From an uncultured bacterium (GTDB lineage Bacteria > Hydrothermota > UBA3073 > NMUJ01): DNA of 28,549 nt. The notes beneath the pieces are model-generated. The model was not told the DNA's origin and searched no databases. It saw only the letters and a list, made by a program, of their open reading frames with translations. Numbering within the stretch: the first letter of the stretch is position 1; every line of letters begins with the position of its first letter. Below, piece by piece: positions 5,471 to 27,251 of this stretch. The DNA is taken from NCBI GenBank assembly GCA_965612795.1, contig CBFDTI010000009.1:1-28549 (forward strand), read 5' to 3'. The position numbers and the translations under genes were made by a program.

Positions 5471-5541
5471 CTTATCCTCCTTGATGATCCGTTGTGATAC
5501 AGTTATGGTATCTGGATTTAAGGAATGCTTATCTTTTGATA

Positions 5542-7228: not shown

Positions 7229-7241
7229 GATATGCAACATT

Positions 7242-8237: not shown

Positions 8238-8241
8238 TGAA

Positions 8242-10869: not shown

Positions 10870-11312
10870 ACCCAATAGATAGTGTAAAGGAAAAATTTAA
10901 GGATAAGATTGTGAAGTTTCACGAGAAGTCGCCACGTCGATACTATATTGATATAAGGAAGGAGGATCTGCTGGACTTCGTGGAGTACATATTCAACGAG
11001 CTACATGCGCGATATATGATACTGAGTGGGGTTGATAACCCACCAGATCATATAGAGGTGCTGTATCACTTTAGTTTCGATAATATCGGTAAGGTGGTAA
11101 CGTTGCGGGTGACACTCGACAGAGAAAACCCAGAAGTCGAATCCATCAGCCCCATCGTGACGGGTGCACAGTGGATAGAGCGTGAAGTACAGGATATCTT
11201 GGGTGTGAAGTTCCTAAACCATCCCGACCCCAGACGGTTTATACTGCCGGATGATTGGCCGGAAGGTAAATACCCGTTACGTAAAGATTATAAGGTAGGG
11301 CAAGATGAGTAA
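10866..11312 (+). CDS. NuoC/MbhK-like subunit
   Basis: LSGVD..IEVLYHFS, ESIS...WIEREVQDILGVKFLNHPDPRRFILPDDWPEGKYPLRKD. Confidence 0.92.
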   Translation: MNPIDSVKEKFKDKIVKFHEKSPRRYYIDIRKEDLLDFVEYIFNELHARYMILSGVDNPPDHIEVLYHFSFDNIGKVVTLRVTLDRENPEVESISPIVTGAQWIEREVQDILGVKFLNHPDPRRFILPDDWPEGKYPLRKDYKVGQDE

Positions 11313-12495: not shown

Positions 12496-14306
12496 GCGAA
12501 ATTTTGTATCTTTTGGCGATACCGTTTGTGACGGGAGTGGTTGCAATCTTCCTACCCAAAAAGGTACGCCCCGCTATCGAGACAGTTGGTATACTCGGTA
12601 GTGTGGGTAGTCTGGCATATGTTACTTATGTTTATGTGAACCTCGTAAGTTATACATCGAGCTGGTGGCGTATTGATGGGTTATCGCGTTTCATATTGCT
12701 GTTCTGTGGTGTGTTTGGATTCCTGATCGCATTGTATTCGTTAAAATTTATGCGTAGATTCGATAGGTTAAACGAATATTACGGATATCTGTTGTTTACG
12801 ATAGGTGCATCGTTTGGTGCTGTGCTTGCAAATAATATGATACTACTTGTGGGGTTCTGGGGGTTTCTTGCATTTACGTTGTTTATGTTGATCACAATTG
12901 GTGGCCCCGACCGCACTGGGGTATCTGAAGCAGCCAAAAAGACGCTCATAATTGTGGGCGGTTCTGACTGCTTAATGATACTGGGGGTTGTGATATTGGG
13001 GTTGTTGGGCAACTCACTGCGTATGGATTCGATGAACGTATCCGTAGGTACGTCGAGGTTGGCTGCACTTGCGTTTGTGTTGCTTGCGGTGACAAGCTTT
13101 GCGAAGGCGGGTGCCATGCCAATGCATACATGGATACCGGATTGCGCAGAGTTTGCACCTATCTCGGTGACTGCATTTTTACCTGCATCGGTGGATAAGT
13201 TACTCGGTATATATCTGCTTGCGAGATTGGTTATGGACATCTTTGTGCTAAATACTGCGATGAAGATATTCCTGCTGGCAGTGGGTGCGTTCACTGTACT
13301 TGCAGCTGTGATGATGGCACTTATCCAACATGATGCTAAACGGTTGTTATCCTATCACGCGGTTTCACAGGTAGGTTATATGGTGTTGGGTATCGGTACA
13401 TGTAATCCCATTGGTATAGCGGGCGGGTTATTCCATATGCTTAACCACGCAATCTATAAAGGATGTTTATTCCTAACCGCGGGCGGTGTCGAACACCGTA
13501 CTGGTACTACTCACCTGGATAGGTTGGGTGGGCTTGCACACTTTATGCCGATTACTTTTGTTAGCTTCCTTGTGGCTGCGCTCGCAATATCTGGTGTGCC
13601 GCCACTTAATGGGTTTGCAAGTAAGTGGCTCGTCTATCAGGGGTTAATCATGTTAAGTAATGAAGGTGGTAAACTATGGATCATCTGGTTAGTGGCGGCA
13701 ATGTTCGGTAGTGCGCTTACGTTGGCCAGCTTCATGAAGTTAGGGCATGCAATATTTTTGGGTCAAACACCAGATTATGAAAGAGCTACCGGGTACAAAG
13801 TGAGGGAAGTGCATTGGTCGATGTGGTTACCTATGGTTGTGTTGGCGGGTCTGTGTCTGGCTTTCGGTATATTTGCGTTTAGGTTACCACTTGCAAAATT
13901 TATTTACCCAGCAGTGGGTAAGGTGCTTATACCTGGGTTCTGGCAACCCACACTGGCAACAATTTTGATACTCGTGGGTATAGTGGTTGGGTTTATAATC
14001 TATCTTATGGGTAGAATTAAGATACGTGAAGATGCTGTACCATTCATAGGGGGTGAGGTCTTACCGGAAGAGGTACGGGTGACGGGGACCGACTTCTACG
14101 ACACTATCCGGGAGATGTCGATTCTACGTACAATTTACAGTAAAGCGGAACAGAAGCTGTTCGACATATACGAGCTGGGCAAAAGAGCGTTCCTATTCTT
14201 AGCGCGTGGTGTATCGTATGCACATGTGGGGGTGTTGACTTCATATGTGGCATGGATATTTTTGGGGTTAATGGCGATCTTGTTCGTAGTTGTTAGGTTG
14301 AGATGA
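12492..14306 (+). CDS. Long antiporter-like membrane subunit (NuoL/MrpA/HyfB family)
   Basis: AKAGAMPMHTWIPD, KRLLSYHAVSQVGY, HMLNHAIYKGCLF, GVPPLNGFASKW; C-terminal amphipathic segment plus final TM helix. Confidence 0.9.
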   Translation: MSEILYLLAIPFVTGVVAIFLPKKVRPAIETVGILGSVGSLAYVTYVYVNLVSYTSSWWRIDGLSRFILLFCGVFGFLIALYSLKFMRRFDRLNEYYGYLLFTIGASFGAVLANNMILLVGFWGFLAFTLFMLITIGGPDRTGVSEAAKKTLIIVGGSDCLMILGVVILGLLGNSLRMDSMNVSVGTSRLAALAFVLLAVTSFAKAGAMPMHTWIPDCAEFAPISVTAFLPASVDKLLGIYLLARLVMDIFVLNTAMKIFLLAVGAFTVLAAVMMALIQHDAKRLLSYHAVSQVGYMVLGIGTCNPIGIAGGLFHMLNHAIYKGCLFLTAGGVEHRTGTTHLDRLGGLAHFMPITFVSFLVAALAISGVPPLNGFASKWLVYQGLIMLSNEGGKLWIIWLVAAMFGSALTLASFMKLGHAIFLGQTPDYERATGYKVREVHWSMWLPMVVLAGLCLAFGIFAFRLPLAKFIYPAVGKVLIPGFWQPTLATILILVGIVVGFIIYLMGRIKIREDAVPFIGGEVLPEEVRVTGTDFYDTIREMSILRTIYSKAEQKLFDIYELGKRAFLFLARGVSYAHVGVLTSYVAWIFLGLMAILFVVVRLR

Positions 14307-14839
14307 TCGACCTTTATATTTGGACAGGGTTGATGATAATCGGTGCGATTGTGGCGCTTGAGGCACCGGATCTTATCTCAGCAATCATTTCATTGGGTGT
14401 GTGTGGGTTTAGTCTGGTGTTCATATTTTTGCGTTTACATGCACCTGATCTTGCAATCGTACAAATCATAGTTGAGACATTGTCGCTCATAATTTTGATT
14501 GCTGCGGTACTGAGGACTACACGTGAAGATACGCAGGAGAGGTTAAGCCTACAGAAGGTAGCGTTATGGTTGGGTGGTCTATTCTTCATGACGGTGTTCA
14601 TGCTCTCCGCATATCAGATAGCGCATGAGATGAGTAGGTTCGGGCATCCATTACTGCGGATGGCGGCAAGCTACTTAGATATGGGGTTGATGAAGACGGG
14701 TGCTGCCAACCTTGTAGCTGCGGTGATATTGGACTTTCGTGCATATGATACATTGGGTGAAGCTACGGTACTGTTCACGTCGGTTATTGGGGTGATGGCT
14801 GTACTGCGGGCGATTGGTAGGAAGAAGCGTGGAGGTTAG
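14303..14839 (+). CDS. MrpA C-terminal-like subunit (MbhD+MbhE-like fusion, DUF4040/MnhB-related)
   Basis: APDLAIVQIIVE and NLVAAVILDFRAYDTLGEATVL. Confidence 0.88.
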   Translation: MIDLYIWTGLMIIGAIVALEAPDLISAIISLGVCGFSLVFIFLRLHAPDLAIVQIIVETLSLIILIAAVLRTTREDTQERLSLQKVALWLGGLFFMTVFMLSAYQIAHEMSRFGHPLLRMAASYLDMGLMKTGAANLVAAVILDFRAYDTLGEATVLFTSVIGVMAVLRAIGRKKRGG

Positions 14840-15298
14840 ATGCATAATAATACCCAAAACACTCCGTCGGGTATGAGTTTGATCGTCAAAACCGTAGCCC
14901 GTATATTGGTGGGAATGATAATGCTCTATGGGATCTATATAGTGGCACATGGACACCTAACACCAGGGGGTGGGTTTGCAGGTGGTGTGATAATTGCGGG
15001 TAGCTTCATACTGCTTTATCTTGCATATGGGGCGACTGCTGCGGATAGTGATAGACGTAAGTGGTATGCTTCACTATATGAGAGCCTTGGTATATTTGGG
15101 TTCTGGATAGTGGCAATACTGGGGTTGGTTTTTGGTACGTACTTTTTGCTCAATATCTTTGCAAAGGGTACGCCGTTCCACCTGTTCAGCGCGGGGATAA
15201 TACCTGTATGTAATGTAGCGATTGGGTTTGAGGTTGCGGGTGCGTTGGTGGGAATATTCATAACGTTTGCAGCAGTTAAACTTTTGGAGCGAAAATGA
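14840..15298 (+). CDS. mnhB: Na+/H+ antiporter subunit B (MnhB/MbhF)
   Basis: HGHLTPGGGFAGG signature. Confidence 0.9.
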   Translation: MHNNTQNTPSGMSLIVKTVARILVGMIMLYGIYIVAHGHLTPGGGFAGGVIIAGSFILLYLAYGATAADSDRRKWYASLYESLGIFGFWIVAILGLVFGTYFLLNIFAKGTPFHLFSAGIIPVCNVAIGFEVAGALVGIFITFAAVKLLERK

Positions 15299-15630
15299 TA
15301 CATTATCTGTTGGGTATATTGTTATTTGTGATCGGCCTGTATGGGGTGCTGGTTAAACGTAACCTGTTCAAGATCGTCATCGGGTTGATCATCATGGAGT
15401 ATGCGACCTTCCTGTTGTTTGCACTCGTGGGGTTTAGGGAGCACGGTACTGCACCCATACAGCCGGGTGTGGCTGGTAAGGTGTTTGTCGACCCACTACC
15501 ACAGGCACTTGTACTAACAGCGATCGTTATAGGGCTCGGTACGACTGCACTTATAGCGGGGTTGGCGGTTAGGATTTACGAAAAGTATGGTACGTTGGAT
15601 ATTAGGAAGATTAAGAAGTTGAAGGGTTGA
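15295..15630 (+). CDS. mnhC: Na+/H+ antiporter subunit C (MnhC/MbhG)
   Basis: NLFKIVIGL and DPLPQALVLTAIVIG. Confidence 0.92.
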   Translation: MIHYLLGILLFVIGLYGVLVKRNLFKIVIGLIIMEYATFLLFALVGFREHGTAPIQPGVAGKVFVDPLPQALVLTAIVIGLGTTALIAGLAVRIYEKYGTLDIRKIKKLKG

Positions 15631-17126
15631 AAATGGTCAACTCTATACCATTATTTGTGGCGATACCGCTGGGTTGTGCATTTATACTGCCACTAATAGG
15701 TAGGAGATGGGAGCGTGCAGGCGACCTATTTGCTAACCTTGTAACTGCAACACTGCTGGGGCTCGCAATATGGAGTGTAAGGTTCATACGTGAGACAACC
15801 GTCTATCATGTGGGAGGTTGGGGTGCGGTGAATGGTATTCCAATAGGTATCTACCTTGTGCGTGATGGATTAAGCATATTTATGTTGGTGGTTGTTAATT
15901 TGATTGCGTTTGCAGCTACATTGTACTCGATCAACTATATGGAGCATTTCACGGATAAGACGAAATACTATACGTTGTTTATGTTGATGCTCGCCGGTAT
16001 GAATGGCGTTATACTGACGGGTGATTTCTTCAACCTTTATGTGTTCCTGGAGATAGCGGCGATCGCATCCTATGCGTTGGTGGCATTCGGTACGGAAGCT
16101 GACGAACTGGAGGCTGCATTCAAGTATCAAGTGATGGGTAGTGTAGGATCGGGGTTCATACTGCTAGGTATAATCCTGCTGTATTCATATACAGGTACAC
16201 TCAATATGGCGGACGTTGGTAGAGTTGTACTGGATAAGGGTACATCCAACCTTGTATGGTTTGTGAATGTACTGTTTATTGTGGGGTTTGGACTTAAAGC
16301 AGCAGTTGTACCGTTCCATATGTGGCTACCGGATGCACATCCGTCAGCACCTGCCCCTATTTCGGCAATGTTGTCAGGTGTGTTAATCGAATCAATAGGC
16401 GTGTATCCATTGACCCGCATAATGTACAATGTGATAGGGTTTGATGGAATTCTATCCAGTATCCTGATAGTCTTAGCGATTATATCGATGATGATAGGAG
16501 GCCTGTTAGCACTATGGCAGTGGGATTATAAGAGGTTACTGGCTTACTCCAGTATAAGTCAGGTAGGTTATATCTTGTTGGGGATTGGTTTAGGTACGCC
16601 GTTGGGCTTGTTGGGGGCGCTGTTCCATCTGTTTAACCATTCCGCATTTAAGGGGTTGCTATTCTTAGACTCCGGCAGTATAGTTTACTCGGTGGGTACG
16701 AGGGATCTACGTGAGATGGGCGAACTTGACCGCAGGATGCCAGTCACCAGTAAAACCAATCTTGTTGCCGCTATGTCGATAGCTGGTGTACCACCGTTTA
16801 ATGGGTTTTGGAGCAAACTTATTATAATCATCGCATGTATACAGGCGGGTCGATATGGGGTTGCGGGGTGGGCTATTTTGGGTAGTATCTTGACATTTGC
16901 GTATATTTTGAAAGCTGAACGCTATGCGTTTTATGGTAAAGCTGGACGAGATATGGCGGATGTGAAGGAATCACCCCCGCTCATGTGTGTTGCATTGATC
17001 ATACTTGCTGTTATATGTGTGGTGGCTGGCCTTATGTTGCTACCCAATGTGAGGGAGACGATTCTATTCCCTGTGGTTAATACATTAACAAGCGGTACAG
17101 AGTATATATGGAGGGTATTGCGATGA
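15627..17126 (+). CDS. mnhD: Na+/H+ antiporter subunit D (MnhD/MbhH)
   Basis: GDFFNLYVFLEI, LEAAFKY, GLKAAVVPFHMWLPDAH, KRLLAYSSISQVGY, GVPPFNGFWSK. Start is TTG 15627 or ATG 15633. Confidence 0.92.
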   Translation: MKMVNSIPLFVAIPLGCAFILPLIGRRWERAGDLFANLVTATLLGLAIWSVRFIRETTVYHVGGWGAVNGIPIGIYLVRDGLSIFMLVVVNLIAFAATLYSINYMEHFTDKTKYYTLFMLMLAGMNGVILTGDFFNLYVFLEIAAIASYALVAFGTEADELEAAFKYQVMGSVGSGFILLGIILLYSYTGTLNMADVGRVVLDKGTSNLVWFVNVLFIVGFGLKAAVVPFHMWLPDAHPSAPAPISAMLSGVLIESIGVYPLTRIMYNVIGFDGILSSILIVLAIISMMIGGLLALWQWDYKRLLAYSSISQVGYILLGIGLGTPLGLLGALFHLFNHSAFKGLLFLDSGSIVYSVGTRDLREMGELDRRMPVTSKTNLVAAMSIAGVPPFNGFWSKLIIIIACIQAGRYGVAGWAILGSILTFAYILKAERYAFYGKAGRDMADVKESPPLMCVALIILAVICVVAGLMLLPNVRETILFPVVNTLTSGTEYIWRVLR

Positions 17127-17608
17127 GGTACTTCGTGCTATTCTTATTTGCGTTCGTTCTGTGGTTACTACTGACGTGGCCTGCGGATTGGCAACATATT
17201 ATTGTGGGGGTGATAGTTTCGACCCTTGTGATGGTGCTCTTCGGTAGGTTGGCTGTTGTCGGTGAAGTGAAGATGTTCGACCCAAAGCGATGGGCTTGGT
17301 TCATTGTATATCTGGTGGTTTTCGTTTGGGAATGTATTAAAGCAAATCTTGACGTTGCGTATAGGGTGATACATCCGCGTATGCCGATAAAGCCTGGTAT
17401 TGTGAAGGTAAAGACTAACCTCAAGTCGGATATTGCACGTACGTTTCTGGCGAATACGATCACCATGACACCGGGTACGCTGTCGGTTGATGTTGACGGT
17501 GATGAACTTTACATACATTGGATATACGTGCGTGATGAAACTGTTGAAGGTGCAACAAAATATATCGTGGGTAGGTTTGAGAGATTTTTGGCAAAGGTGT
17601 TCGAATGA
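17123..17608 (+). CDS. mnhE: Na+/H+ antiporter subunit E (MnhE/MbhA)
   Basis: KANLDVA, IKPGIV, LANTITMTPGTLSVD, LYIHW. ATG 17123 with ATGA overlap and GGAGGG SD. Confidence 0.92.
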   Translation: MRYFVLFLFAFVLWLLLTWPADWQHIIVGVIVSTLVMVLFGRLAVVGEVKMFDPKRWAWFIVYLVVFVWECIKANLDVAYRVIHPRMPIKPGIVKVKTNLKSDIARTFLANTITMTPGTLSVDVDGDELYIHWIYVRDETVEGATKYIVGRFERFLAKVFE

Positions 17609-17666
17609 GTAGCAAACTACAGGTGAAAATATGGGGTGAGGTTGACCGATTCATGAAGGGGTAGGG

Positions 17667-17924
17667 ATGATCTATACACTTATTGTTATACTTGCGGGGA
17701 TTGCAGTATTATGCTTTATACGGGTATGGCGTGGCCCGACAATGGCGGATAGGATGGTGGCAGTTGATATGTTTGGAATCTTAGTTGTAGGGATAACACC
17801 GCTGTTGGCACTTCTATATAAGCGTGAATTCCTTATAGATATTGGGTTGGCATGGATATTCATAAGTTTTATAGGTACGATAGCGTTGGCAAAATATTTG
17901 GAAGGAAGGAAGTTCGATGAATGA
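17667..17924 (+). CDS. mnhF: Na+/H+ antiporter subunit F (MnhF/MbhB)
   Basis: RGPTMADRMVAVD and SFIGTIALAKYL. Confidence 0.92.
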   Translation: MIYTLIVILAGIAVLCFIRVWRGPTMADRMVAVDMFGILVVGITPLLALLYKREFLIDIGLAWIFISFIGTIALAKYLEGRKFDE

Positions 17925-18261
17925 GGTGATAGGTTTGATAATCATAACTGTGGGGGTGGCGTTTGATTTCTTTGGTGTGTTGGGGCTTTTGAGGTTACCT
18001 GATGTGTATAATAGGTTACAGGCGGCTACCAAATGTATAACACTCGGTACTTGTGGTATAATGCTGGGTACGTTCGTTATGAATGGATTTACGGGGTTAG
18101 GGATTAAGGCATTGATTGCGATACCATTTATATTCTTTACTGCGGCAACGGGGTCACATGCGCTTGCACGTGGTGCACATAAGTTTGGTATCAAGTTGTG
18201 GCACAAAAGCGTATGCGATAAGTACAGGGAAAGAGTTACAAGTGACGAGGGTAACAAGTAG
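17917..18261 (+). CDS. mnhG: Na+/H+ antiporter subunit G (MnhG/MbhC)
   Basis: GLLRLPDVYNRLQAATKCITLG and SHALARGA. Confidence 0.92.
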   Translation: MNEVIGLIIITVGVAFDFFGVLGLLRLPDVYNRLQAATKCITLGTCGIMLGTFVMNGFTGLGIKALIAIPFIFFTAATGSHALARGAHKFGIKLWHKSVCDKYRERVTSDEGNK

Positions 18262-18905
18262 TGGTGATGAAGTATCCAAAGTTACGTGAGCTGGGTGAAG
18301 CAATACGTGCGTTGTTTACGGGGCCATATACAACGAAGTTTCCAAAGGTACCACATGTGCCGGCGAAGAAGTTTCGTGGTAAACCTGTACCTGATGATGA
18401 ATGGTGTGTGGGTTGTACCGCATGTAAGGAAGTATGTCCAACGGGTGCGATAGAAGTGCATGACGATGCTGAAAAAGGTATACGAACCATCATCAGGCGA
18501 TACGATAAGTGTATATTCTGTGGACAGTGTGAACTTTACTGTATTACCGAGAGAGGTGTGCGTCTAACTCAGGAGTATGATCTGGCGACATTCGACCGCA
18601 GTACGCTATATGTTGAACAGCAGAAGGAGTTACTCGTATGTGATAGGTGTGGTGCGGTGATAGGTGCCAAACAACATATACTGTGGTTGATACACAAACT
18701 GGGGCCACTCGCCTACAGTAACCTGCCGTTAATGTTGGTATCACAGGAGGAGTTGAAAGTTGCGGAGGTGCCACGTGAGAAGATAACTATGGAGAAACCT
18801 GTCACCCGACAGGATATGTTTCGAATACTGTGTCCCAAATGTAAGCATGAGGTGTTGATCTACGATACCTACGCGAGACGTGTTGAACCCACTGATGATA
18901 AATAA
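18261..18905 (+). CDS. NuoI/HycF/MbhN-like 2x[4Fe-4S] subunit with C-terminal CxxC...CxxC extension
   Basis: GPYTTKFP..FRGKP, CVGCTACKEVCP, CIFCGQCELYC, then CDRCG...CPKCK. Start is GTG 18261, GTG 18264 or ATG 18267. Confidence 0.9.
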   Translation: MVMKYPKLRELGEAIRALFTGPYTTKFPKVPHVPAKKFRGKPVPDDEWCVGCTACKEVCPTGAIEVHDDAEKGIRTIIRRYDKCIFCGQCELYCITERGVRLTQEYDLATFDRSTLYVEQQKELLVCDRCGAVIGAKQHILWLIHKLGPLAYSNLPLMLVSQEELKVAEVPREKITMEKPVTRQDMFRILCPKCKHEVLIYDTYARRVEPTDDK

Positions 18906-19263
18906 GGTTATTGAGCTATCAGAACAGAACCTATACGCATGTTATCAGTGTGGTAAGTGTTCGGCAGGTTGCCCAAGCGTTAGTTTGATGGATCTTATGC
19001 CTAATCAGGTGATACGATACTTGCAGATAGGTAAACCTGATAAGGTGTTACAATGTAAGACGATATGGATATGTGCATCATGCTATACGTGTAGTGTGAG
19101 ATGCCCAAGGGGTATCGACCTGACACGTGTGATGGAGGCGATACGGTTGATACAATTGCGGAAGAATATCGACTATATAAAGGTACGTGAGATAAGTGAA
19201 GATGTGCTGGTAAGTTTACCACAGATTGCATTGGTGGCAGAGTTCAGGAAACACACAGCATGA
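18895..19263 (+). CDS. hdrC: Heterodisulfide reductase subunit C (short form)
   Basis: CYQCGKCSAGCP and IWICASCYTCSVRCPRGID; precedes hdrB and hdrA. ATG 18895 preferred. Confidence 0.9.
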   Translation: MINKVIELSEQNLYACYQCGKCSAGCPSVSLMDLMPNQVIRYLQIGKPDKVLQCKTIWICASCYTCSVRCPRGIDLTRVMEAIRLIQLRKNIDYIKVREISEDVLVSLPQIALVAEFRKHTA

Positions 19264-20123
19264 AAGTATTCTACTATCCAGGGTGTACATTGAAGACGCA
19301 GGCGAAGAATTTTGAATGTTCCGCTATGGAGGTGATGAAATTATTGGGTTACGAGCTGGTGGAGCTCAACCGCTGGAACTGTTGTGGTACGGTGTATTCG
19401 TTGGCATCGGACGATTTGATACATAAGGTTGCACCCATAAGGAATTTGATCCGCGTAAAGGAGCAGGGTGGTGACAAAGTTGTAACCCTATGTGCGATGT
19501 GCTACAATACGTTGAAACAGGCGAATGTATTCTTCAATTCGGATCAGGAAGCACGTGATAAGATAAACAGCTTTATGGATACCGAGATAGATTACGAAGG
19601 TGATGTGGAGGTATTGCATCTGCTTACAGTCCTTAAGGATGAGGTTGGGTTCGACAATATCAGCAAAAAGGTTGTACGTAAACTTAACCACATAAAGGTG
19701 GCACCCTATTATGGGTGTCTGTTGTTGAGGCCATCAACTGTCGCTATAGATGATGCGGAGAATCCATCCATCATGGAGGAGCTGTTACATGCGTTGGGTA
19801 TTGAAACGATCGATTTCCCTTATAGGAATGAGTGTTGTGGTACGTACAACACTGTAAGTGCGGTAGATCTTGTCATAGATAGGACGTATAGGATAGTGGG
19901 GTTGGCGAGAAATTTAGGTGCAGATGTGATTGTGACAAGTTGCCCATTGTGCCAGTTTAATCTTGAAGTACGGCAGAAGGATGTTAAGGAGAGGTTCCCT
20001 GAGTTTGAGCAGCTACCTGTGATATATTTTACGCAATTGATGGGTGTAGCGCTTGGTGTACCAATAGAGAGGTTGGGGTTTGACCTTAATCATATAAAGC
20101 CAAAAGTGTTGATGGAGTTGTGA
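19260..20123 (+). CDS. hdrB: Heterodisulfide reductase subunit B
   Basis: YYPGC...WNCCG...LCAMCYNTL and YYGCLLLRP...ECCG...SCPLCQFNL (two complete CCG domains). Confidence 0.93.
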   Translation: MKVFYYPGCTLKTQAKNFECSAMEVMKLLGYELVELNRWNCCGTVYSLASDDLIHKVAPIRNLIRVKEQGGDKVVTLCAMCYNTLKQANVFFNSDQEARDKINSFMDTEIDYEGDVEVLHLLTVLKDEVGFDNISKKVVRKLNHIKVAPYYGCLLLRPSTVAIDDAENPSIMEELLHALGIETIDFPYRNECCGTYNTVSAVDLVIDRTYRIVGLARNLGADVIVTSCPLCQFNLEVRQKDVKERFPEFEQLPVIYFTQLMGVALGVPIERLGFDLNHIKPKVLMEL

Positions 20124-20124
20124 C

Positions 20125-22083
20125 ATGGAGCCACGTATTGGGGTGTTTGTTTGTCACTGTGGGATCAATATCGCATCGACGGTAGATGTTAAACGTGTAG
20201 TGGAGGCGATTAAGGGTTACCCCGGTGTGGTGCATGCTGAGGATTATGTGTATATGTGTTCAGATCCGGGGCAGGAACTTATACGTTCACGTATTAAGGA
20301 GAAGAAACTAAACGGTGTAGTGGTTGCGGCATGTTCGCCAACCCTACATGAGGCTACTTTCAGGAATACCGTGGGACAGGTGGGGCTTAACCCATACAGG
20401 TGCGAGATCGCCAACATACGTGAACATTGTAGCTGGATACATACGGATAAGGATAAAGCTACGGAGAAAGCGATAAAAATAGTTAAGTCTATTGTTGAGA
20501 AGGTGAAATTAAACGATGAGCTGTTACCCATCAGTATACCTATCACCAAACGTGCGCTGGTTATAGGGGGTGGTATCGCTGGTATACAGGCGGCACTCGA
20601 TATCGCCAATGCAGGGTATGAAGTGATACTGGTGGAGAAGAATCCATCGATTGGCGGGCATATGGCACAGCTTTCGGAGACGTTTCCGACATTGGATTGT
20701 GCACAGTGTATATTGACACCTAAGATGGTGGAGGTGGGGCAACATCCCAATATCAAGCTATACAATTATGCGGAGGTTGAGGATCTGTCCGGGTATGTGG
20801 GTAATTTCAAAGTGAAGATTAGGTTAAAGGCATCGTATGTGGATTGGTCCAAATGTGTTGGCTGTGGTGTATGTATGGAGAAATGTCCGACGAAGGTACC
20901 GTCAGAGTTTGAGATGGGGCTCACCACACGTAAAGCTATATATGTGCCGTTCCCGCAGGCGGTACCTAACAAGCCGGTTATCGATAGAGAGAATTGCCTG
21001 TATTTTAAGACAGGTAAGTGTCGTGTATGTGAAAAGGTATGTACGTTTGAGGCGATAAAATTTGACGAACAGGATGAGTTTGTTGAAGAAGAGGTAGGTG
21101 CAATAATTGTAGCGACAGGGTATGAGCTATACCCGATTGAGAAGATTGGTGAGTATGGGGGTGGTAAGTACAAGGATGTGATAAATGGGTTGCAGTTTGA
21201 GCGATTGCTATCAGCGTCGGGACCGACGGGTGGTGGGGTGCAGCGGCCATCGGATAGGAAGGTACCTAAGCGGGTGGCATTTGTTAGCTGTGTGGGGTCA
21301 CGTGACCCTGAGTTACATAAACCATACTGTTCGAAAGTGTGTTGTATGTATCTGACGAAACATGCAATGTTGTACAAGCATCGTGTGCCAGATGGCGAAC
21401 CCATTGTGTTCTATATTGACATAAGGTCGGATGGTAAAGGATACGAGGAGTTTGTACAACGTGCACAGGAGGAGGATCACGTCACCTACATAAGGGGTAA
21501 GGTGTCGAAAATCTACGAAGATGATGGTGAGCTGGTGTTGCTTGCGGTTGATACGTTAACGGGTGAACCACTGGAGGTGAGGGTTGATATGGTGGTGTTG
21601 GGGATGGCTATTGTGCCATCGCCGTTGGTTTATGAGTTGGCGAAAAAGTTGAAGCTCCAGATAGATGCGAATGGGTTCCTGACGGAGGCACACCCGAAGT
21701 TGAGGCCGGTTGAAACACTTACACCGGGTATATTTCTTGCGGGGTGTGCACATGCACCTAAGGATATACCGGATACGGTGGCACAGGCGTCGGCGGCAGC
21801 AAGTAAGGTGTTGGAGATGTTCAGCCAGAAAGAGCTACAGCATGATCCGATGGTGGCAACAGTTGATGAAGATCGTTGTAGTGGGTGCGGTGTATGTGTA
21901 ACATTATGTCCGTATGGGGCGAGGGAGCTTGAGGTTAAAGATGGTAAGCGGGTAGCTAAGGTTAACGAAGCTAAGTGTGAAGGTTGTGGCAGCTGTATAG
22001 CGGGATGTCCGGCGGGTGCGTGTCAACAACGTAATCTTAAGGATGAACAGCTGGTGAATATGGTGAAGGCAGTACTGGAGTAG
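20125..22083 (+). CDS. hdrA: Heterodisulfide reductase subunit A (electron-bifurcating flavoprotein)
   Basis: CHCGINIA, YMCS, ACSP, NIREHCSW, GGGIAG, TFPTLDCAQC, inserted ferredoxin domain, QFERLL, CVGSRD, YCSKVCCMYLTK, C-terminal 2x[4Fe-4S] domain. Confidence 0.96.
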   Translation: MEPRIGVFVCHCGINIASTVDVKRVVEAIKGYPGVVHAEDYVYMCSDPGQELIRSRIKEKKLNGVVVAACSPTLHEATFRNTVGQVGLNPYRCEIANIREHCSWIHTDKDKATEKAIKIVKSIVEKVKLNDELLPISIPITKRALVIGGGIAGIQAALDIANAGYEVILVEKNPSIGGHMAQLSETFPTLDCAQCILTPKMVEVGQHPNIKLYNYAEVEDLSGYVGNFKVKIRLKASYVDWSKCVGCGVCMEKCPTKVPSEFEMGLTTRKAIYVPFPQAVPNKPVIDRENCLYFKTGKCRVCEKVCTFEAIKFDEQDEFVEEEVGAIIVATGYELYPIEKIGEYGGGKYKDVINGLQFERLLSASGPTGGGVQRPSDRKVPKRVAFVSCVGSRDPELHKPYCSKVCCMYLTKHAMLYKHRVPDGEPIVFYIDIRSDGKGYEEFVQRAQEEDHVTYIRGKVSKIYEDDGELVLLAVDTLTGEPLEVRVDMVVLGMAIVPSPLVYELAKKLKLQIDANGFLTEAHPKLRPVETLTPGIFLAGCAHAPKDIPDTVAQASAAASKVLEMFSQKELQHDPMVATVDEDRCSGCGVCVTLCPYGARELEVKDGKRVAKVNEAKCEGCGSCIAGCPAGACQQRNLKDEQLVNMVKAVLE

Positions 22084-22087
22084 TAAT

Positions 22088-22522
22088 ATGGAGGGGTTTG
22101 AACCCAAAATTGTGGCGTTCTGCTGTAAATGGTGTTCGTATGCGGCAGCCGATCTGGCGGGTACGTCGAGGTTGAAGATTAAGCCTAACTTTGTGGTGAT
22201 AAGGACGATGTGTTCCAGCCGCGTAGATCCCGAATTTATACTTGAGGCGTTTTGGAATGGTGCGGATGGTGTGCTGGTGGCGGGATGTCATCCGGGTGAT
22301 TGCCACTATGTGAATGGTAACTACAAGACGTTGCGTAGGGTGATGTTGTTGAAGAAGATGTTGGAACAGCTGGGGATCGATCCGAGGCGGTTACGTCTGG
22401 AGTGGATAGCAGCTAGTGAGAGCCGTAAGTTTGTTGTCACCATAAGGAAGTTTGTGGATGAATTGAAGCAGCTGGGGCCGTTGAGGTTGGAAGCGAGTGG
22501 TGATAATGGAAGTAACGGTTAG
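22088..22522 (+). CDS. mvhD: MvhD/FlxD [2Fe-2S] subunit
   Basis: FCCKWCSYAAADLAG, MCSSRVDP, GADGVLVAGCHPGDCHY..GN. Confidence 0.95.
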   Translation: MEGFEPKIVAFCCKWCSYAAADLAGTSRLKIKPNFVVIRTMCSSRVDPEFILEAFWNGADGVLVAGCHPGDCHYVNGNYKTLRRVMLLKKMLEQLGIDPRRLRLEWIAASESRKFVVTIRKFVDELKQLGPLRLEASGDNGSNG

Positions 22523-22925
22523 GTGGATAAATGGTATGCAGTTTGTGGGTAAGACTGGGTCAGGACATATGGTGGTGATGGATACCTCGACGGAGTTTGG
22601 TGGCGAAAACATGGCACCGACACCTATGGAGTTGCTGTTGGTGGCATTGGGTGGATGTACGGGGATGGATGTGATGTCGATCCTACGTAAGATGCAGGTG
22701 AAGTGTGAGTGCATGGAAATAAATGTTAAAGGTGAACGCAGTGATGAACATCCAAGGATGTTTAAAAAGATAGAGCTCGCGTATAGGGTGAAGGGTAAGG
22801 ATATACCGGAGGATAAGGTTAAGAGGGCGGTTGAGCTTTCGCAGGAGAAGTATTGTTCGATATCGGCGATGCTTAAGACAGTGGCCGACATTACATACAG
22901 GGTGGAGATAGAAAATAATAATTGA
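22506..22925 (+). CDS. OsmC/Ohr superfamily (YhfA-like) two-Cys protein
   Basis: SGHMVVMD, PTPMELLLVALGGCTGMDV, AVELSQEKYCSISAML. Start is ATG 22506 or GTG 22497; overlaps the mvhD 3' end. Confidence 0.9.
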   Translation: MEVTVRWINGMQFVGKTGSGHMVVMDTSTEFGGENMAPTPMELLLVALGGCTGMDVMSILRKMQVKCECMEINVKGERSDEHPRMFKKIELAYRVKGKDIPEDKVKRAVELSQEKYCSISAMLKTVADITYRVEIENNN

Positions 22926-22937
22926 TGGAGGTACAAC

Positions 22938-23915
22938 ATGGGTAAACCAAAGTTTGCATTTTACTGGTGTGCATCATGCGGTGGATGTGAAGAGACGGTG
23001 CTCGATCTCAACGAGAAGATACTGGAGGTTGTTGATAAGATAGATATTGTGTTTTGGCCGGTGGCACTCGACTTCAAACGTAAGGATATTGAGGCGATGA
23101 AGGAGGGTGAGATAGATGTTGCGTTTATAAATGGGGCGATAAGGACGAGTGAACAGGAGGAGATGGCTAAATTGTTGCGTGAGAAGGCGAAATTTGTGGT
23201 GGCGTTTGGGGCATGTGCGCAGTTGGGTGGTATACCGGGGTTGGCAAATTTCTGGGTACGGAGTGATATTTTTGATAGAGTCTACAAGGGGGTGCCCACT
23301 GTGGCAAATCCAGAAGGTGTGGTACCACAGCAGGTAGTGGAAATGGACGGTTATAAGCTGACGTTACCTGAATTTTACGATACGGTTAAGACGTTGGACC
23401 AAACAATAGCGGTGGATTACTATCTGCCGGGGTGTCCGCCACCACCTGATCTTATTATGGATGCGATAGAGGCCATACTTAAGGGTAAGCTACCGGAGAG
23501 AGGTACGGTGTTGGCACCCGATAAGGCGCTATGTGATACATGTCCAAGGAATGAGACCAAGCCGGAAAAGTTATCGATAAAAGATATAAAGCGGCCACAT
23601 GAGGTGATAATCGATCCGGAGAAGTGTTTCCTTGAACAGGGTATTATATGTTTGGGGCCTGTGACACGGTCGGGGTGTGGCGAACGTTGTATTAACGCTA
23701 ACATGCCATGTCGTGGATGTATGGGGCCGACGAGCGAGGTACGTGACCAGGGTGCGAAGGCGGTATCATTTATTGCATCTATTCTTGGGGTGGAAGATGA
23801 GGAGAAGCTATCAGAAGAAGAGGTGCAGAAGTTGATAGATAAGATTGTCGATCCAGCAGGTACGTTCTATAGGTTTTCACTACCGGCATCGTTACTTAGA
23901 AGGAGGCGCAAATGA
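22938..23915 (+). CDS. mvhG: Group 3c [NiFe]-hydrogenase small subunit
   Basis: WCASCGGCE, FGACAQLGGIPGLAN, LPGCPP, LCDTCPR, CFLEQGIICLGPVTRSGC..RC...PCRGCMGP. SD GGAGG. Confidence 0.93.
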   Translation: MGKPKFAFYWCASCGGCEETVLDLNEKILEVVDKIDIVFWPVALDFKRKDIEAMKEGEIDVAFINGAIRTSEQEEMAKLLREKAKFVVAFGACAQLGGIPGLANFWVRSDIFDRVYKGVPTVANPEGVVPQQVVEMDGYKLTLPEFYDTVKTLDQTIAVDYYLPGCPPPPDLIMDAIEAILKGKLPERGTVLAPDKALCDTCPRNETKPEKLSIKDIKRPHEVIIDPEKCFLEQGIICLGPVTRSGCGERCINANMPCRGCMGPTSEVRDQGAKAVSFIASILGVEDEEKLSEEEVQKLIDKIVDPAGTFYRFSLPASLLRRRRK

Positions 23916-25369
23916 GACGTGTGACTATCGACCCTATAACGAGGCTTGAGGGGCACGGTAAGATAGAAATATTCCTCGATGATAAAGGTGAGGTTGAGCG
24001 TGCATTCTTCCAGATACCGGAGTTGCGTGGGTTTGAGAAGTTCTGTGAGGGTAGGCCAGCTGAGGAGATGCCAAGGATTACACCACGAATATGTGGGGTG
24101 TGTCCGACTGCACACCATATGGCGTCAACTAAGGCGCTCGACGACCTATATAAGGTAGAGCCACCGGAAGCTGCTAAGAAGATACGTGAACTCATGTACT
24201 GTGCGTTCCAGGCGGAGGATCATCTGTTGCATTTCTTCTTCCTTGGGGCACCGGAGTTCATTGTGGGGTTGGATGCACCCAAGGGTGAACGTAATATACT
24301 GGGTGTTATAGGGAAGGTAGGGCTGGAAATCGGTGGTAAGGTGATAGAAGCACGTAAGAGGTGTCGTGAGATTATTACGTTGATAGGGGGTAAGGTTGTA
24401 CATCCGGTGTGTGGGTTACCAGGTGGGGTGTCGAAACCGTTAACCGAAGAGGAGCGTGCGAAGATTAAGGAAGCGGCAGACTTTATGGTGGAGTTTGCTA
24501 AGTTTGTGATGGAGCTATTCAACAAGCAAGTGGTACAGAACACGGAGTATGTGGAGTTGATAAGGAGTGATACGTATACACACAGAACTTACTATATGGG
24601 GTTGGTGGATAAGGACAATAAGGTGAACTTCTACGATGGTGATATTAGGGTGGTCGACCCCGATGGTAATGAGTTTGCGAAATTCTCGGCTGGTGAGTAT
24701 CTCAAGTATATTGCGGAACATGTTGAACCATGGACTTATGTGAGGTTCGCATACCTGAAGGAGGTGGGTTGGAAAGGGTTTGTCGATGGTAAAGATAGTG
24801 GGGTATTTAGGGTGGCACCACTGGCGAGGCTCAATGCAGCTGATGGTATGGCGACACCGATGGCACAGGAGTATTACGAACAGATGTATGATGTGTTGGG
24901 TGGTAAACCAGTGCATCATACGTTGGCATTCCACTGGGCACGCCTTATAGAGGTGGTGTATGCAGCGGAGAGGATGAAGCAGCTTGCGGAGGATCCAGTG
25001 CTTACGGATACGAATGTACGTAATATACCGGAAGCTACACCGGAGGAGGGGGTGGGTGTGGTGGAAGCACCGAGGGGGACGCTTTTCCATCACTATAAAA
25101 CTGATGGGAATGGTATACTTAAGGAAGTGAACCTCATAGTGGCGACACAGAACAATGCTGCTGCTATATGTATGTCGGTGGAGAAGGCAGCGAGATCGCT
25201 TATCAAAAGGGGTGAGGTTTCGGATAAGCTATTGAATATGATAGAGATGGCGTTTAGGGCGTACGATCCGTGTCATGCGTGTGCAACACATACGTTGCCG
25301 GGTGAGATGCCGCTGGAGGTGATAGTTTACAACTCGAAAAACGAACCGATAAAGGTGCTAAGGAGATAA
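23912..25369 (+). CDS. mvhA: Group 3c [NiFe]-hydrogenase large subunit
   Basis: DPITRLEGHG, ELRGFEKF, L1 motif PRICGVCPTAH, EAPRGTL, L2 motif RAYDPCHACATH, then a 25-aa extension; hdr/mvhD context. Confidence 0.94.
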   Translation: MRRVTIDPITRLEGHGKIEIFLDDKGEVERAFFQIPELRGFEKFCEGRPAEEMPRITPRICGVCPTAHHMASTKALDDLYKVEPPEAAKKIRELMYCAFQAEDHLLHFFFLGAPEFIVGLDAPKGERNILGVIGKVGLEIGGKVIEARKRCREIITLIGGKVVHPVCGLPGGVSKPLTEEERAKIKEAADFMVEFAKFVMELFNKQVVQNTEYVELIRSDTYTHRTYYMGLVDKDNKVNFYDGDIRVVDPDGNEFAKFSAGEYLKYIAEHVEPWTYVRFAYLKEVGWKGFVDGKDSGVFRVAPLARLNAADGMATPMAQEYYEQMYDVLGGKPVHHTLAFHWARLIEVVYAAERMKQLAEDPVLTDTNVRNIPEATPEEGVGVVEAPRGTLFHHYKTDGNGILKEVNLIVATQNNAAAICMSVEKAARSLIKRGEVSDKLLNMIEMAFRAYDPCHACATHTLPGEMPLEVIVYNSKNEPIKVLRR

Positions 25370-25383: not shown

Positions 25384-25827
25384 ATGAAGACCCTCGTACT
25401 GGGGCTCGGTAACCCGATACTGGCGGATGATGGTATCGGTATAAGGGTGGTACAGGAATTACGTAAAAGGGTGAATGGTGTTGAGTTTAAGGAATGTAGT
25501 ATCGCAGGGGTGGGTGTGTTGGATGAGATCGATGGCTATGATAGGGTTGTGATCATAGATGCGATCAAAACGGGTACGGGTGACCCAGGTACGGTATATA
25601 AGTTGAAGTTGGAGGATTTTGACAAAGCCTGCCCGATGGGGTCGCATGGGTGTGGGTTATCTACGGTGATAGAGCTGGGTAGGCGGATGGGGTATAAAGT
25701 GCCAAAGGTTATCGATATCTATGCGATAGAAGTGAAGAATAACGAGGAGTTTGGTGAAAACCTGACACCGAAGCTAGCTAAACAGTTGAATAATATAGTG
25801 GAAAGGATTGCGAAAGAGATAGCATGA
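25384..25827 (+). CDS. Hydrogenase maturation endopeptidase (HyaD/HybD/HoxW-like)
   Basis: LGLGNPILADDGIG, IIDAI, PGTVY, SHG; directly after mvhA. Confidence 0.9.
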   Translation: MKTLVLGLGNPILADDGIGIRVVQELRKRVNGVEFKECSIAGVGVLDEIDGYDRVVIIDAIKTGTGDPGTVYKLKLEDFDKACPMGSHGCGLSTVIELGRRMGYKVPKVIDIYAIEVKNNEEFGENLTPKLAKQLNNIVERIAKEIA

Positions 25828-26390
25828 AGCTAAAAGTTGATAAATTAAAGAAGTGGGAGAATGAGCTCAATGTATGTATCAGGTGTGGTTACTGTTACGA
25901 ACATTGTCACCTGTTTAAGTTGACGGGTTGGGAGGTAGATACACCCAGGGGTAAGCTGTTATTGATCTATGGGTTGGTTACGGGTGAGATTGTACCTTCG
26001 GAGTACATAGCGGAGAAGATATTTGAGTGTTTCTATTGCAAAAACTGTGGTAAGAGCTGTTCGGCGAATGTAGCAGTTACTGATATATTTACGGAGGCCA
26101 GGGAGGTACTGAAAGAAGCGGGGTTTGATGTCGATGGTACCACAGTAAAGGTTGATAAAGATATGTGTTCAGGCTGTGGTATATGTGTATCAGTCTGTAA
26201 AGCGGAAGCTACGAAGGTTGAGAAGGAGGAGGGTAAAAGGAAGGCGGTTGTTGATAAGGTGAAATGCCAATCCTGTGGTGTATGTGTGGCAGCATGTCCG
26301 ACAGGGGCACGTAAGCCGAAGGAGGGGTATCAAATATCGCCGAAAGAGCTTAGGGCAAAGGTTGCAGGATATCTGGTGGGTGCAAGATGA
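25824..26390 (+). CDS. Chimeric 4x[4Fe-4S] protein: GlcF-type N-terminal di-cluster domain + HdrA-C-terminal-like ferredoxin domain
   Basis: CIRCGYCYEHC, CFYCKNCGKSC, CSGCGICVSVC, CQSCGVCVAACP. Hand alignments to two other genes in this window are given under findings. Confidence 0.85.
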   Translation: MKLKVDKLKKWENELNVCIRCGYCYEHCHLFKLTGWEVDTPRGKLLLIYGLVTGEIVPSEYIAEKIFECFYCKNCGKSCSANVAVTDIFTEAREVLKEAGFDVDGTTVKVDKDMCSGCGICVSVCKAEATKVEKEEGKRKAVVDKVKCQSCGVCVAACPTGARKPKEGYQISPKELRAKVAGYLVGAR

Positions 26391-26782
26391 GCGACCCTAA
26401 AATAGTTGTGTTCTGTTGTAACTGGTCGGTATATCCGGGGTTGCAGCTAAGTGACCTGGAAGGGGAGCCGGATATATCGGCGGGGACGATTGTCACCATG
26501 TGTACGGGTAGGATAGATCCTGAACTTGTACTGGAGGCGTTCGATAAGGGTGCGTGGGGGGTGATGATAGCGGCATGCCCGTTGGGTGAGTGTGAGCATG
26601 ACGGTAATTATAAAACAGTACGTAGGGTGATGCTGCTCAGAAAGATGTTAAAACAGCTGAATATTGAACCTGAAAGGGTGAGGCTGGAATACATAGGTAC
26701 GGGTGAGGTGGCCAAACTCAATAAGGCTATACGTGAGTTCCGTGATAGTGTGGTGAAGCTGGGACCGTTAGGTAGTGGGTGA
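26387..26782 (+). CDS. Divergent MvhD-like protein (second copy)
   Basis: PKIVVFCCNWS, TMCTGRIDP, AACPLGECEHDGNYKT, ERVRLEYI, KLGPL. Confidence 0.88.
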   Translation: MSDPKIVVFCCNWSVYPGLQLSDLEGEPDISAGTIVTMCTGRIDPELVLEAFDKGAWGVMIAACPLGECEHDGNYKTVRRVMLLRKMLKQLNIEPERVRLEYIGTGEVAKLNKAIREFRDSVVKLGPLGSG

Positions 26783-27251
26783 CGAGTTACGTGAGTTCCT
26801 GGAGCGACATCGAGGTGGTAAGATTGTAGTCATAGGGGTGGGTAATACATTACGTGGTGATGATGGGGTAGGGCCAAAGTTTGTTGAGAGAATTAAAGAT
26901 TTTACAAGTGATAGGTTTGTGGCAATAGATGCGGGTGAGGTGCCTGAGAACTATCTGGGTAAGGTGGCTAAACTGCAACCCGATGTCATAATACTGGTGG
27001 ATGCAACTAATATGGGGGAAACACCCGGTACGATGAAGGTGTTGACACGTGAAGCTATAGAGGGGGAGGCGTTCTTTACACATAAGTTGCCGTTGAGTTT
27101 TGTGATGAAGCACTGGGAGGATGAAGGGTTTAAGGTGTTTCTGATCGGTATACAGCCGGAGCAGCTGGAGTTCGGTAAGGGGTTGTCACCGAGGGTGGCG
27201 AAAGCATTGGAGGAGTTGGTGAGGATATTCCGAAATACGGTGACACAATAG
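26775..27251 (+). CDS. hycI: Hydrogenase 3-type maturation endopeptidase (HycI family)
   Basis: GVGNTLRGDDGVG, GEVPENY, LVDATNMG..PG, THKLPLS, IGIQP. Confidence 0.85.
   Translation: MGDELREFLERHRGGKIVVIGVGNTLRGDDGVGPKFVERIKDFTSDRFVAIDAGEVPENYLGKVAKLQPDVIILVDATNMGETPGTMKVLTREAIEGEAFFTHKLPLSFVMKHWEDEGFKVFLIGIQPEQLEFGKGLSPRVAKALEELVRIFRNTVTQ

Follow-up and report, generated by a model that had tools for sequence, protein, structure and literature searches.

What do the iron-sulfur proteins encoded among the genes of a [NiFe]-hydrogenase connect it to? We addressed this question for two adjacent genes in a 28,549-bp stretch of DNA with 46% G+C (the window), which is contig C9 of a 1.42-Mb genome (99.48% complete) of an uncultured bacterium. 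The first gene (positions 25824 to 26390, forward strand) encodes a protein of 188 amino acids (aa), here given the working name X, which joins an N-terminal half of the GlcF/HdrC di-cluster type to a C-terminal half of the HdrA-C-terminal ferredoxin type. The second, mvhD2 (26387 to 26782, forward strand), encodes a 131-aa MvhD homolog. On balance, X and MvhD2 probably form an adaptor that wires a GlcD-type dehydrogenase to the hydrogenase MvhAG, yielding a non-bifurcating, H2-linked 2-oxoacid/D-2-hydroxyacid oxidoreductase.

X consists of an N-terminal half (approximately residues 1 to 104), a C-terminal half of the 2×[4Fe-4S] ferredoxin type (approximately residues 105 to 165), and a short tail that forms the linker in fused X-MvhD proteins. 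Residues 8 to 101 align without gaps to residues 31 to 124 of the GlcF-like protein encoded in the same window (55 of 94 identical), and residues 110 to 162 align without gaps to residues 580 to 632 of the window's HdrA (28 of 53 identical). When we slid this 53-residue segment along six window proteins (HdrA, MbhN-like, Fer4, FrdB-like, AsrA-like, and HdrC), the five other than HdrA gave at best only 9 to 12 identities. BLASTP matched X to the GlcF-like protein with 60 of 116 residues identical (E 3e-40) and to HdrA with 38 of 106 (E 2e-17), the latter alignment ending at the HdrA C terminus. Pfam placed Fer4_8 (PF13183, 52.6 bits) and Fer4_17 (PF13534, 48.2 bits) at residues 14 to 83 and Fer4_7/Fer4 at residues 108 to 163, and it found no match in X to the CCG domain (PF02754) or to Pyr_redox or any other flavin adenine dinucleotide (FAD) family. 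Across 27 X homologs, 16 cysteines are invariant, eight of them in the N-terminal di-cluster domain; we infer that these suffice for four cubane clusters. A preliminary description of the window had counted both ungapped alignments by hand, had seen neither a CCG nor an FAD domain in X, and had placed the gene between two hydrogenase proteases and ahead of an mvhD homolog with an ATGA overlap. Recounting gave exactly the same identities, Pfam agrees on the two missing domains, both flanking genes match PF01750, and the overlap is present, with PF02662 covering residues 6 to 126 of MvhD2 (121.3 bits, cutoff 22.3).

The C-terminal half, at 55 residues, offers too few columns for a tree, and we therefore placed it by how it ranks in score within the genome, the loci, and the PDB. 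Genome-wide, its best non-self match is the HdrA tail (63 bits, 49% identity over 59 aa), followed by a 115-aa ferredoxin (49 bits), and the HdrA tail and the X C-terminal half are reciprocal best matches (63 to 67 bits versus 49 to 55 bits for other ferredoxins). In the PDB, the best single stretches for an X profile are HdrA C termini (60 to 68 bits); among non-repeat ferredoxin-type chains, the top scorer (complex I TYKY/NuoI) reaches at most 37.6 bits, and the polyferredoxins FwdF and MvhB come top only by summed repeats, their best single repeat scoring 34 bits. These single-stretch scores bear out the grouping of the C-terminal half with HdrA tails rather than generic ferredoxins, on which the preliminary description had depended; the match is confined to the last 60 to 70 residues of HdrA. 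All of the top six Foldseek matches to an AlphaFold2 (AF2) model of X (predicted local distance difference test score [pLDDT] 81) are HdrA chains. In addition, residues 94 to 319 of a fused homolog (P0019) are colinear with positions 558 to 775 of a 777-residue HdrA2 model (E 2.7e-47), a region that comprises the HdrA tail plus MvhD. For the N-terminal half, a PDB sequence search found no solved structure beyond HdrC at 27 bits.

No curated family describes X: no NCBIfam model reaches its cutoff, and Pfam gives generic Fer4 families only. X was ruled out as a GlcF by its lack of a CCG domain, as an HdrA by its lack of a flavin core, and as a polyferredoxin by NCBIfam scores of 46 against a cutoff of 375 (FwdF) and 34 against 600 (VhuB). 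In a tree of 81 X N-terminal halves (the window's included), 15 co-resident GlcF N-terminal domains, and 24 HdrC proteins, the X halves form one clade (Shimodaira-Hasegawa-like approximate likelihood ratio test [SH-aLRT] 100) separate from the other two groups, which indicates that X had a single origin and not several reassemblies. Separately, we noted a 561-aa protein (P0121) whose residues 1 to 135 match the X N-terminal half at 54% identity and whose remainder has weak FliG-like and acetyltransferase-like matches; it is either an odd fusion or a miscalled gene.

The MvhD partner of X also has a history of its own. MvhD2 shares 66 of 130 residues (51%, E 7e-44) with MvhD1, the hdrA-linked copy in the window. 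In a tree of 76 X-linked and 55 other MvhD copies, the X-linked copies need only two changes, and 54 of the 55 others fall in one set with support 100. Constraining the X-linked copies to one clade gave a slightly better tree, which was not rejected (approximately unbiased test, p-AU 0.635). The window's MvhD2 groups with the X-linked copies, the nearest being that of locus L003 at 65%. Cysteines C11, C39, C64, and C69 are kept in 99 to 100% of the 76 X-linked proteins, and the classical fifth cysteine, present in 93% of the 55 others, is serine in 92% of the X-linked copies; the lineage also has its own W57, P65, and H71. Judged by tree and residue pattern, X-linked MvhDs are a near-clade with a signature of their own.

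We then located X relatives in at least 396 species genomes (contigs, one genome per species) and examined the best 80 of 396 loci in detail; open reading frames in the flanking DNA, at most 10 kb to either side, were labeled by comparison with the proteins of the window. Of the 80 loci, 17 are from Thermoplasmatota, 10 from Chloroflexota, 9 from Acidobacteriota, and 6 from Cloacimonadota; eight other phyla are also represented, and the record titles of 29 loci name no phylum. The hosts are uncultured anaerobes, both archaea and bacteria, among them Thermoplasmatota, Dehalococcoidia, Acidobacteriota, Cloacimonadota, and WOR-3. A single X-MvhD fusion protein is encoded in 44 loci; of the 36 with separate genes, 34 have mvhD as the gene after X, and the contig ends in the remaining 2. 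X and MvhD are therefore fused or adjacent in all 78 loci where enough of the contig is available, and the one-off occurrence that the preliminary description had named as a refutation does not apply. When 5.8 billion proteins were searched, 224 near-length matches to X were returned, and many hits of 310 to 329 aa carry PF02662 and are X-MvhD fusions. Of 110 longer homologs (E ≤ 1e-20), 109 are X-MvhD fusions and one is GlcF-like; no GlcD-X fusion occurs among these 110, which is weak evidence of absence. Clustering at 50% collapses the family to a handful of full-length representatives, and by this measure X is a compact, strongly conserved family. Annotation of its genes goes no further than "ferredoxin" or, for the fused forms at NCBI, "hydrogenase iron-sulfur subunit."

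The usual upstream neighbor of the X-MvhD pair is glcD. At least 300 bp of upstream DNA is available for 79 loci; in 61 of them, a GlcD ortholog (64 to 84% identical to that of the window) lies directly upstream of X on the same strand, and seven more loci have the order glcD-glcF-X. Across all 80 loci, GlcD is present in 70, MvhA in 33, HdrA in 30, FrdA in 19, and GlcF in 16. The window is an atypical member, with glcD separated from X: its glcD-like gene (5542 to 6978, reverse strand; PF01565 and PF02913), which encodes an FAD-dependent D-2-hydroxyacid dehydrogenase and is the sole close copy in the genome, lies approximately 19 to 20 kb from X on the opposite strand. This GlcD is 84% identical to that of L003, where the operon reads glcD-glcF-X-mvhD-mvhG-mvhA. 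Seven Thermoplasmatota loci (L023, L031, L035, L036, L047, L055, and L062) have arrays of approximately 20 kb with three MvhD genes, in the order hdrA(large)-hdrC-hdrB-mvhG-mvhA-protease-mvhD-glcD-X+mvhD-mvhD, then approximately 1 kb without labels, then AsrA-like, AsrB-like, hdrA, hdrA.

We modeled the complex of GlcD and X from alignments of 34 GlcD and 27 X sequences, with three runs and three controls. The model scored 0.91 (runs 0.92, 0.91, and 0.91), compared to 0.16 for the best control; the runs share at least 90% of their contacts, and the partner pLDDT is at least 78. In calibration, 116 of 157 solved complexes and 2 of 215 mismatched pairs attained the mark used. Confident contacts on X are confined to residues 12 to 82, in the GlcF-like half, and include the invariant W36-E37 and the R42 region; those on GlcD involve residues 20 to 33, 71 to 73, 89 to 92, 134 to 137, and 324 to 340. 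A sequence search found no GlcD-GlcF-type complex in the PDB, which makes it less likely that the high score reflects memory. The predicted interface supports binding of the X N-terminal half to GlcD. The preliminary description had named GlcD as a possible partner of X, from domain resemblance and without any synteny to go by, and called for a search for such an interface, and both the conserved synteny and the model agree with it.

The same description had cast X as a possible alternative to GlcF for this GlcD. The window's glcF-like gene (4418 to 5545, reverse strand) encodes a protein with Fer4_8 and CCG domains (PF02754, 84 bits); its best NCBIfam match is TfrB, a thiol:fumarate reductase subunit (158 bits, cutoff 385). 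A second genome of the same genus, G075 (87% complete), runs collinear to the window with 93 to 96% nucleotide identity. It lacks positions 25847 to 26770, exactly X plus mvhD2, so that protease 1 is followed directly by protease 2, and approximately 25 bases upstream of the protease 2 start still resemble the end of mvhD2. It also lacks positions 4436 to 5541, exactly glcF, in a clean gene-sized gap that brings the phosphoenolpyruvate carboxykinase (PEPCK) gene against glcD. Nowhere in this genome did we find a match to X or to the GlcF N-terminal domain at E ≤ 1e-30. The joint absence of X and mvhD2 indicates that the pair behaves as a two-gene cassette, and the retention of GlcD indicates that this enzyme can be maintained when both partners are missing. 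In the closest relatives, synteny revealed indels and no second copy of the arrangement. Of the claim itself, the link between X and GlcD stands, and the strict reading of X as a substitute for GlcF is weakened, given that glcF and X-mvhD2 co-vary in the genus.

On the other side of the adaptor, the window points to the hydrogenase. The genes mvhG (22938 to 23915) and mvhA (23912 to 25369), both on the forward strand, encode the small and large subunits of a group 3c-type [NiFe]-hydrogenase (Pfam; best NCBIfam models VhuG and VhuA) and stand in one overlapping gene string with X. Protease 1 (25384 to 25827, forward strand) is coupled to X by an ATGA overlap at 25824, as X is to mvhD2 by another at 26387, and the start of protease 2 (26775 to 27251, forward strand) overlaps the end of mvhD2. 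Orthologs of protease 1 lie 3′ of mvhA in 31 of the 80 loci; the context of protease 2 is syntenic with L083. In 14 loci, mvhG directly follows the MvhD module and is itself followed by mvhA, the simplest operon form being glcD-X-mvhD-mvhG-mvhA-protease. Within flanks of up to 10 kb, 16 loci have Mvh but no HdrA, and several of them contain no labeled MvhD besides the X-linked one. Where the X locus has no Mvh, an MvhA ortholog was found elsewhere in five of five genomes. We also sampled 201 genomes of the window's phylum-level group (MvhA threshold E ≤ 1e-100): MvhA is present in all eight with a full-length X versus 79 of the 193 without, a difference that is supportive only, because the eight genomes are related and do not form an independent test.

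Other acceptors are possible by locus, namely HdrA, especially in Thermoplasmatota, and hdrCB-frdBA in Dehalococcoidia. Six Acidobacteriota loci (L067, L068, L070, L072, L077, and L079) contain, in this order, glcD, X+mvhD, a larA-like gene, metV (PF12225), and metF (PF02219). In Moorella, HdrABC-MvhD feeds methylene-tetrahydrofolate reductase, and this analogy suggests that the same plug could feed that enzyme in the six loci. In the genome of one of them (L072; G001), the MvhA ortholog appears as two abutting matches (C9:120746-122186), the N-terminal one with in-frame TGA and TAG codons, which could reflect gene breakage, a frameshift, or recoding. We regard GlcD-X-MvhD as a portable plug, for which the socket in the window is most likely MvhG. 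The direct wire from GlcD to MvhAG that the preliminary description proposed gains from the glcD-X-mvhD-mvhG-mvhA operons and the co-occurrence with MvhA; passage of electrons along it, by a path without bifurcation, is the part that we infer.

We propose that X and MvhD2 would form a five-cluster adaptor with four [4Fe-4S] clusters and one [2Fe-2S] cluster. The GlcF-like half of X would sit on GlcD beside the flavin, its C-terminal half and MvhD2 would mimic the unit of HdrA C-terminal ferredoxin domain and MvhD in Hdr complexes, and MvhD2 would dock the assembly onto MvhG-MvhA. The result would be a soluble chain running from substrate through FAD, four cubane clusters, the [2Fe-2S] cluster, and the MvhG clusters to the [NiFe] site, with no bifurcating flavin. 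In the window's host, PEPCK would supply oxaloacetate, GlcD would reduce it with H2-derived electrons, a LarA-type racemase would convert the product to L-malate, and fumarase and a soluble fumarate reductase (Frd) would carry it to succinate. Extended to its full scope, the scheme would make the five-subunit GlcD-X-MvhD2-MvhG-MvhA complex an H2:oxaloacetate oxidoreductase that forms D-malate. In anaerobes that lack malate dehydrogenase (MDH), this complex and a nickel-pincer malate racemase would jointly take the place of NAD-malate dehydrogenase in the reductive C4 branch, and in other phyla the plug would be reused for soluble fumarate reductase, MetVF, or HdrA modules. This extended version is possible, if doubtful as a whole.

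The substrate pair that the sequences favor is oxaloacetate/D-malate, which we consider probable; pyruvate/D-lactate is the less likely pair, and other substrates make up the remainder. A LarA homolog is present in 31 of the 80 loci, usually as the next gene. For all seven LarA homologs compared (six from the loci and one from the window's own genome), the top model is LarAH6 malate racemase, NF052593 (360 to 395 bits); the lactate racemase model gives approximately 85 to 105 bits less (275 to 306 bits). The LarAH6 of Thermoanaerobacterium was shown biochemically to be a malate racemase, and the sections of that report consulted place COG0277/COG0247 dehydrogenases near several LarA groups and do not mention this adaptor (PMC7583248). 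The homolog in the window's own genome is at contig C7:26827-28122, reverse strand (L081:2828-4123), and scores 360 bits on LarAH6 against a cutoff of 500.

Residue K384 of GlcD is invariant in 34 of 34 sequences and, by alignment, lies in the side-chain pocket, where it aligns with Ile407 of mouse LDHD, a tyrosine of LctD, and a leucine of a glycolate oxidase. Mouse Ile407 lines a hydrophobic side-chain pocket that excludes D-malate, according to the sections consulted of PMC10589216. In the whole genome, we found no match to the malate/lactate dehydrogenase (MDH/LDH) families (PF02866, Ldh_1_C; PF02615, Ldh_2) or to malic enzyme (PF00390), and control genomes did match. The genome encodes PEPCK, fumarase, soluble Frd, and succinyl-CoA synthetase (SucCD); the PEPCK, of the GTP type (2510 to 4408, reverse strand; Pfam), is downstream of glcD-glcF on the same strand. 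C4 enzymes also occur near X in the 80 loci: fumarase in 19, Frd in 19, SucCD in 18, a carboxylase in 9, and malic enzyme in 6. We had first read the substrate as D-lactate, from neighbors that Pfam labels lactate racemase, and demoted it after the racemase scores, K384, and the missing MDH.

Several observations weigh against the adaptor reading or its D-malate version. In the window, the link between X and GlcD rests on gene order in other genomes, and the same-genus genome without X-mvhD2 keeps its GlcD at 98% identity. The complex model cannot separate X from its paralog GlcF, given that close cousins pass the test and that the contact motif is common to both. In 24 of the 80 loci, GlcD-X-MvhD occurs without Mvh, HdrA, or Frd within the flanks of up to 10 kb, which means that the hydrogenase either is not the sole partner or is encoded elsewhere. 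The kinship of the eight X genomes limits the MvhA comparison, as noted above. The hdrA-mvhD1 pair just upstream of mvhGA leaves room for a bifurcating assembly. Published Hdr structures show the cluster of MvhD feeding into a flavin (PMC12350162, consulted in part), unlike the proposed scheme, which has no flavin after MvhD2. With regard to the substrate, the LarA matches fall below the curated cutoffs of 500 (LarAH6) and 460 (lactate racemase), and the nearest solved relatives of GlcD are LctD (269 bits) and a glycolate oxidase (266 bits), compared to 145 bits for D2HGDH. LarC (PF01969), the only Lar maturation family searched, has no match in this 99.5%-complete genome, which leaves the supply of nickel-pincer cofactor to the racemase unexplained.

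How do other explanations of the locus compare? The same wiring could serve D-lactate/pyruvate, as an H2-evolving or H2-consuming lactate dehydrogenase working with a lactate racemase. This is rather unlikely in our view: all seven LarA homologs prefer the malate racemase model by approximately 85 to 105 bits, the invariant K384 occupies a position that is Ile, Tyr, or Leu in lactate and glycolate enzymes, and the neighborhoods are rich in C4-dicarboxylate enzymes in a genome with no match to MDH or malic enzyme. The observations that keep it in play are the rank of Acetobacterium woodii LctD (269 bits) as nearest solved GlcD relative, the Pfam label of the racemase neighbors, and the GlcD/GlcF-type lactate dehydrogenases proposed from sulfate-reducer gene clusters (PMC5165239, in the sections consulted). 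A different wiring, which we judge unlikely, would make GlcD-X-MvhD2 the donor or acceptor arm of an HdrA-based bifurcating or confurcating complex, comparable to the arms of Mvh, Fdh, or Elp, and not a linear wire; the 2-hydroxyacid/2-oxoacid couple would then serve as one leg of flavin-based bifurcation, alongside ferredoxin and H2. The window's hdrCBA-mvhD1 is immediately upstream of mvhGA-X-mvhD2, HdrA occurs in 30 of the 80 loci, and 10 of the 17 Thermoplasmatota loci combine GlcD, Mvh, and HdrA. Oxidation of lactate or malate to H2 is energetically uphill and would benefit from confurcation. In structures described in the part consulted of PMC12350162, MvhD homologs connect with HdrA's bifurcating FAD. 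However, with a built-in version of the HdrA C-terminal domain and a separate MvhD lineage, X looks like a replacement arm rather than a module docking on HdrA; MvhD1 stays with the HdrA genes, and within flanks of up to 10 kb, HdrA is absent from 50 of the 80 loci and Mvh is accompanied by no HdrA in 16.

In a third arrangement, GlcF and X-MvhD2 would both belong to a single larger assembly built on GlcD, such as a GlcD dimer with one of each, in which H2 electrons reach both the flavin and the GlcF CCG site. The co-variation in the genus keeps this idea alive: G075 is missing exactly glcF and exactly X-mvhD2 between flanks that are 93 to 96% identical, although that genome is only 87% complete. 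Moreover, glcF lies inside the module in 12 loci (glcD-glcF-X in 7, glcF after mvhD in 5), yet GlcF is found in only 16 of the 80. The predicted GlcD interface uses a motif common to X and GlcF (W36, E37, and the R42 region), which suggests a single site, and we consider a joint complex quite improbable. Finally, X-MvhD2 might be an accessory ferredoxin pair of the hydrogenase, similar to MvhB, with no tie to GlcD. X-mvhD2 does sit in the window's mvhGA-protease string, FwdF and MvhB do have the highest summed PDB scores, and the NCBI name of the fused forms refers to a hydrogenase. Such a role is nevertheless very improbable, given that X is linked more tightly to glcD (70 of 80 loci) than to mvhA (33 of 80), that the best single polyferredoxin stretch scores 34 bits versus 60 to 68 for HdrA tails, and that the N-terminal half is specifically GlcF-like and predicted to bind GlcD.

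The remainder of the window is also rich in redox genes. At its left end, on the reverse strand, are a frdA-like gene (3 to 1373; Pfam, best NCBIfam model TfrA, below cutoff) and a frdB-like gene of the soluble fumarate reductase kind (1380 to 2171; Pfam); the encoded Frd may be a thiol- or Fe-S-linked soluble enzyme rather than a quinol-linked one. All genes from 7227 onward mentioned here are on the forward strand. Sulfhydrogenase beta/gamma-like genes (7227 to 9057; best NCBIfam models ShyB/HydB and ShyC/AsrB, all below cutoff) run directly into an Mbh/Mrp-type membrane hydrogenase set (9048 to 18905; Pfam), with the start at 9048 overlapping the stop at 9057. The gene order AsrA-like, AsrB-like, MbhN, NuoH, NuoB, NuoC, NuoD recurs in L073, and positions 7227 to 18905 may encode an NAD(P)H-linked membrane complex. 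The classical Hdr module follows, with hdrC, hdrB, hdrA, and mvhD1 (18880 to 22522, of which mvhD1 is 22088 to 22522; Pfam). Between mvhD1 and mvhG is an OsmC-like gene (22497 to 22925), which overlaps mvhD1 by 26 bases and has 94% protein identity to its counterpart in the same-genus genome. Two methyltransferase genes (Pfam) lie 3′ of protease 2, and the Pfam map shows no Etf gene in the window.

To date, MvhD connectors are not known outside the arms of HdrA bifurcating complexes (Mvh, Fdh, and Elp). If the adaptor reading is true, a connector has been freed from HdrA and grafted onto a different flavoenzyme, and hydrogenases gain direct access to the 2-oxoacids of central carbon metabolism. 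If the D-malate reading is also true, it explains how oxaloacetate-to-fumarate is closed in genomes without MDH. Given the generic annotation of these genes, metabolic reconstructions of the groups concerned miss the link between GlcD and the hydrogenase. The X-mvhD2 pair is small and self-contained and is directly testable by co-expression.

In the literature searched, which excluded subscription journals and supplements, we found no published GlcD partner composed of a GlcF N-terminal domain, a ferredoxin domain, and MvhD. From sequence comparison, the module appears to be widespread, uncharacterized, and built from known parts in a new arrangement. Its nearest functional counterparts are the complexes MvhAGD-HdrABC, FdhAB-MvhD-Hdr, and ElpABC-Hdr (PDB 5ODC, 7BKB, and 8RVU), in which, as proposed for X-MvhD2, MvhD and the HdrA C-terminal ferredoxin domain connect an input enzyme to a partner; the likeness to Mvh-Hdr extends to the type of hydrogenase, MvhAG, encoded in the same operon as X. 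X differs from these in lacking an FAD/thioredoxin-reductase domain, an inserted ferredoxin domain, and attached HdrBC. Its ferredoxin domain is instead grafted onto a GlcF-type di-cluster domain, the presumed partner is a GlcD flavoenzyme, and the X-linked MvhD is a separate lineage without the fifth cysteine.

The polyferredoxins MvhB and FwdF are likewise multi-cluster Fe-S proteins encoded with Mvh hydrogenases, but X has only one bacterial-type ferredoxin repeat. In GlcDEF glycolate oxidase and in the GlcD/GlcF (CCG) D-lactate dehydrogenases of sulfate reducers, the Fe-S subunit has an N-terminal di-cluster domain homologous to the N-terminal half of X. X has a ferredoxin domain and MvhD in place of both CCG domains, no GlcE accompanies it, and its N-terminal half forms a clade apart from GlcF. 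Archaeal GlcD-HdrD pairs are a further case in which an Fe-S subunit accompanies GlcD. Among solved structures, the window's GlcD is nearest to LctD of the Ldh-EtfAB complex (LctBCD) of A. woodii (PDB 7QH2), where a GlcD-type flavoenzyme likewise works with a dedicated partner and not with quinone. There, the partner is the pair of EtfAB flavoproteins, with NAD and ferredoxin, whereas here it would be an all-iron-sulfur adaptor encoded beside a hydrogenase.

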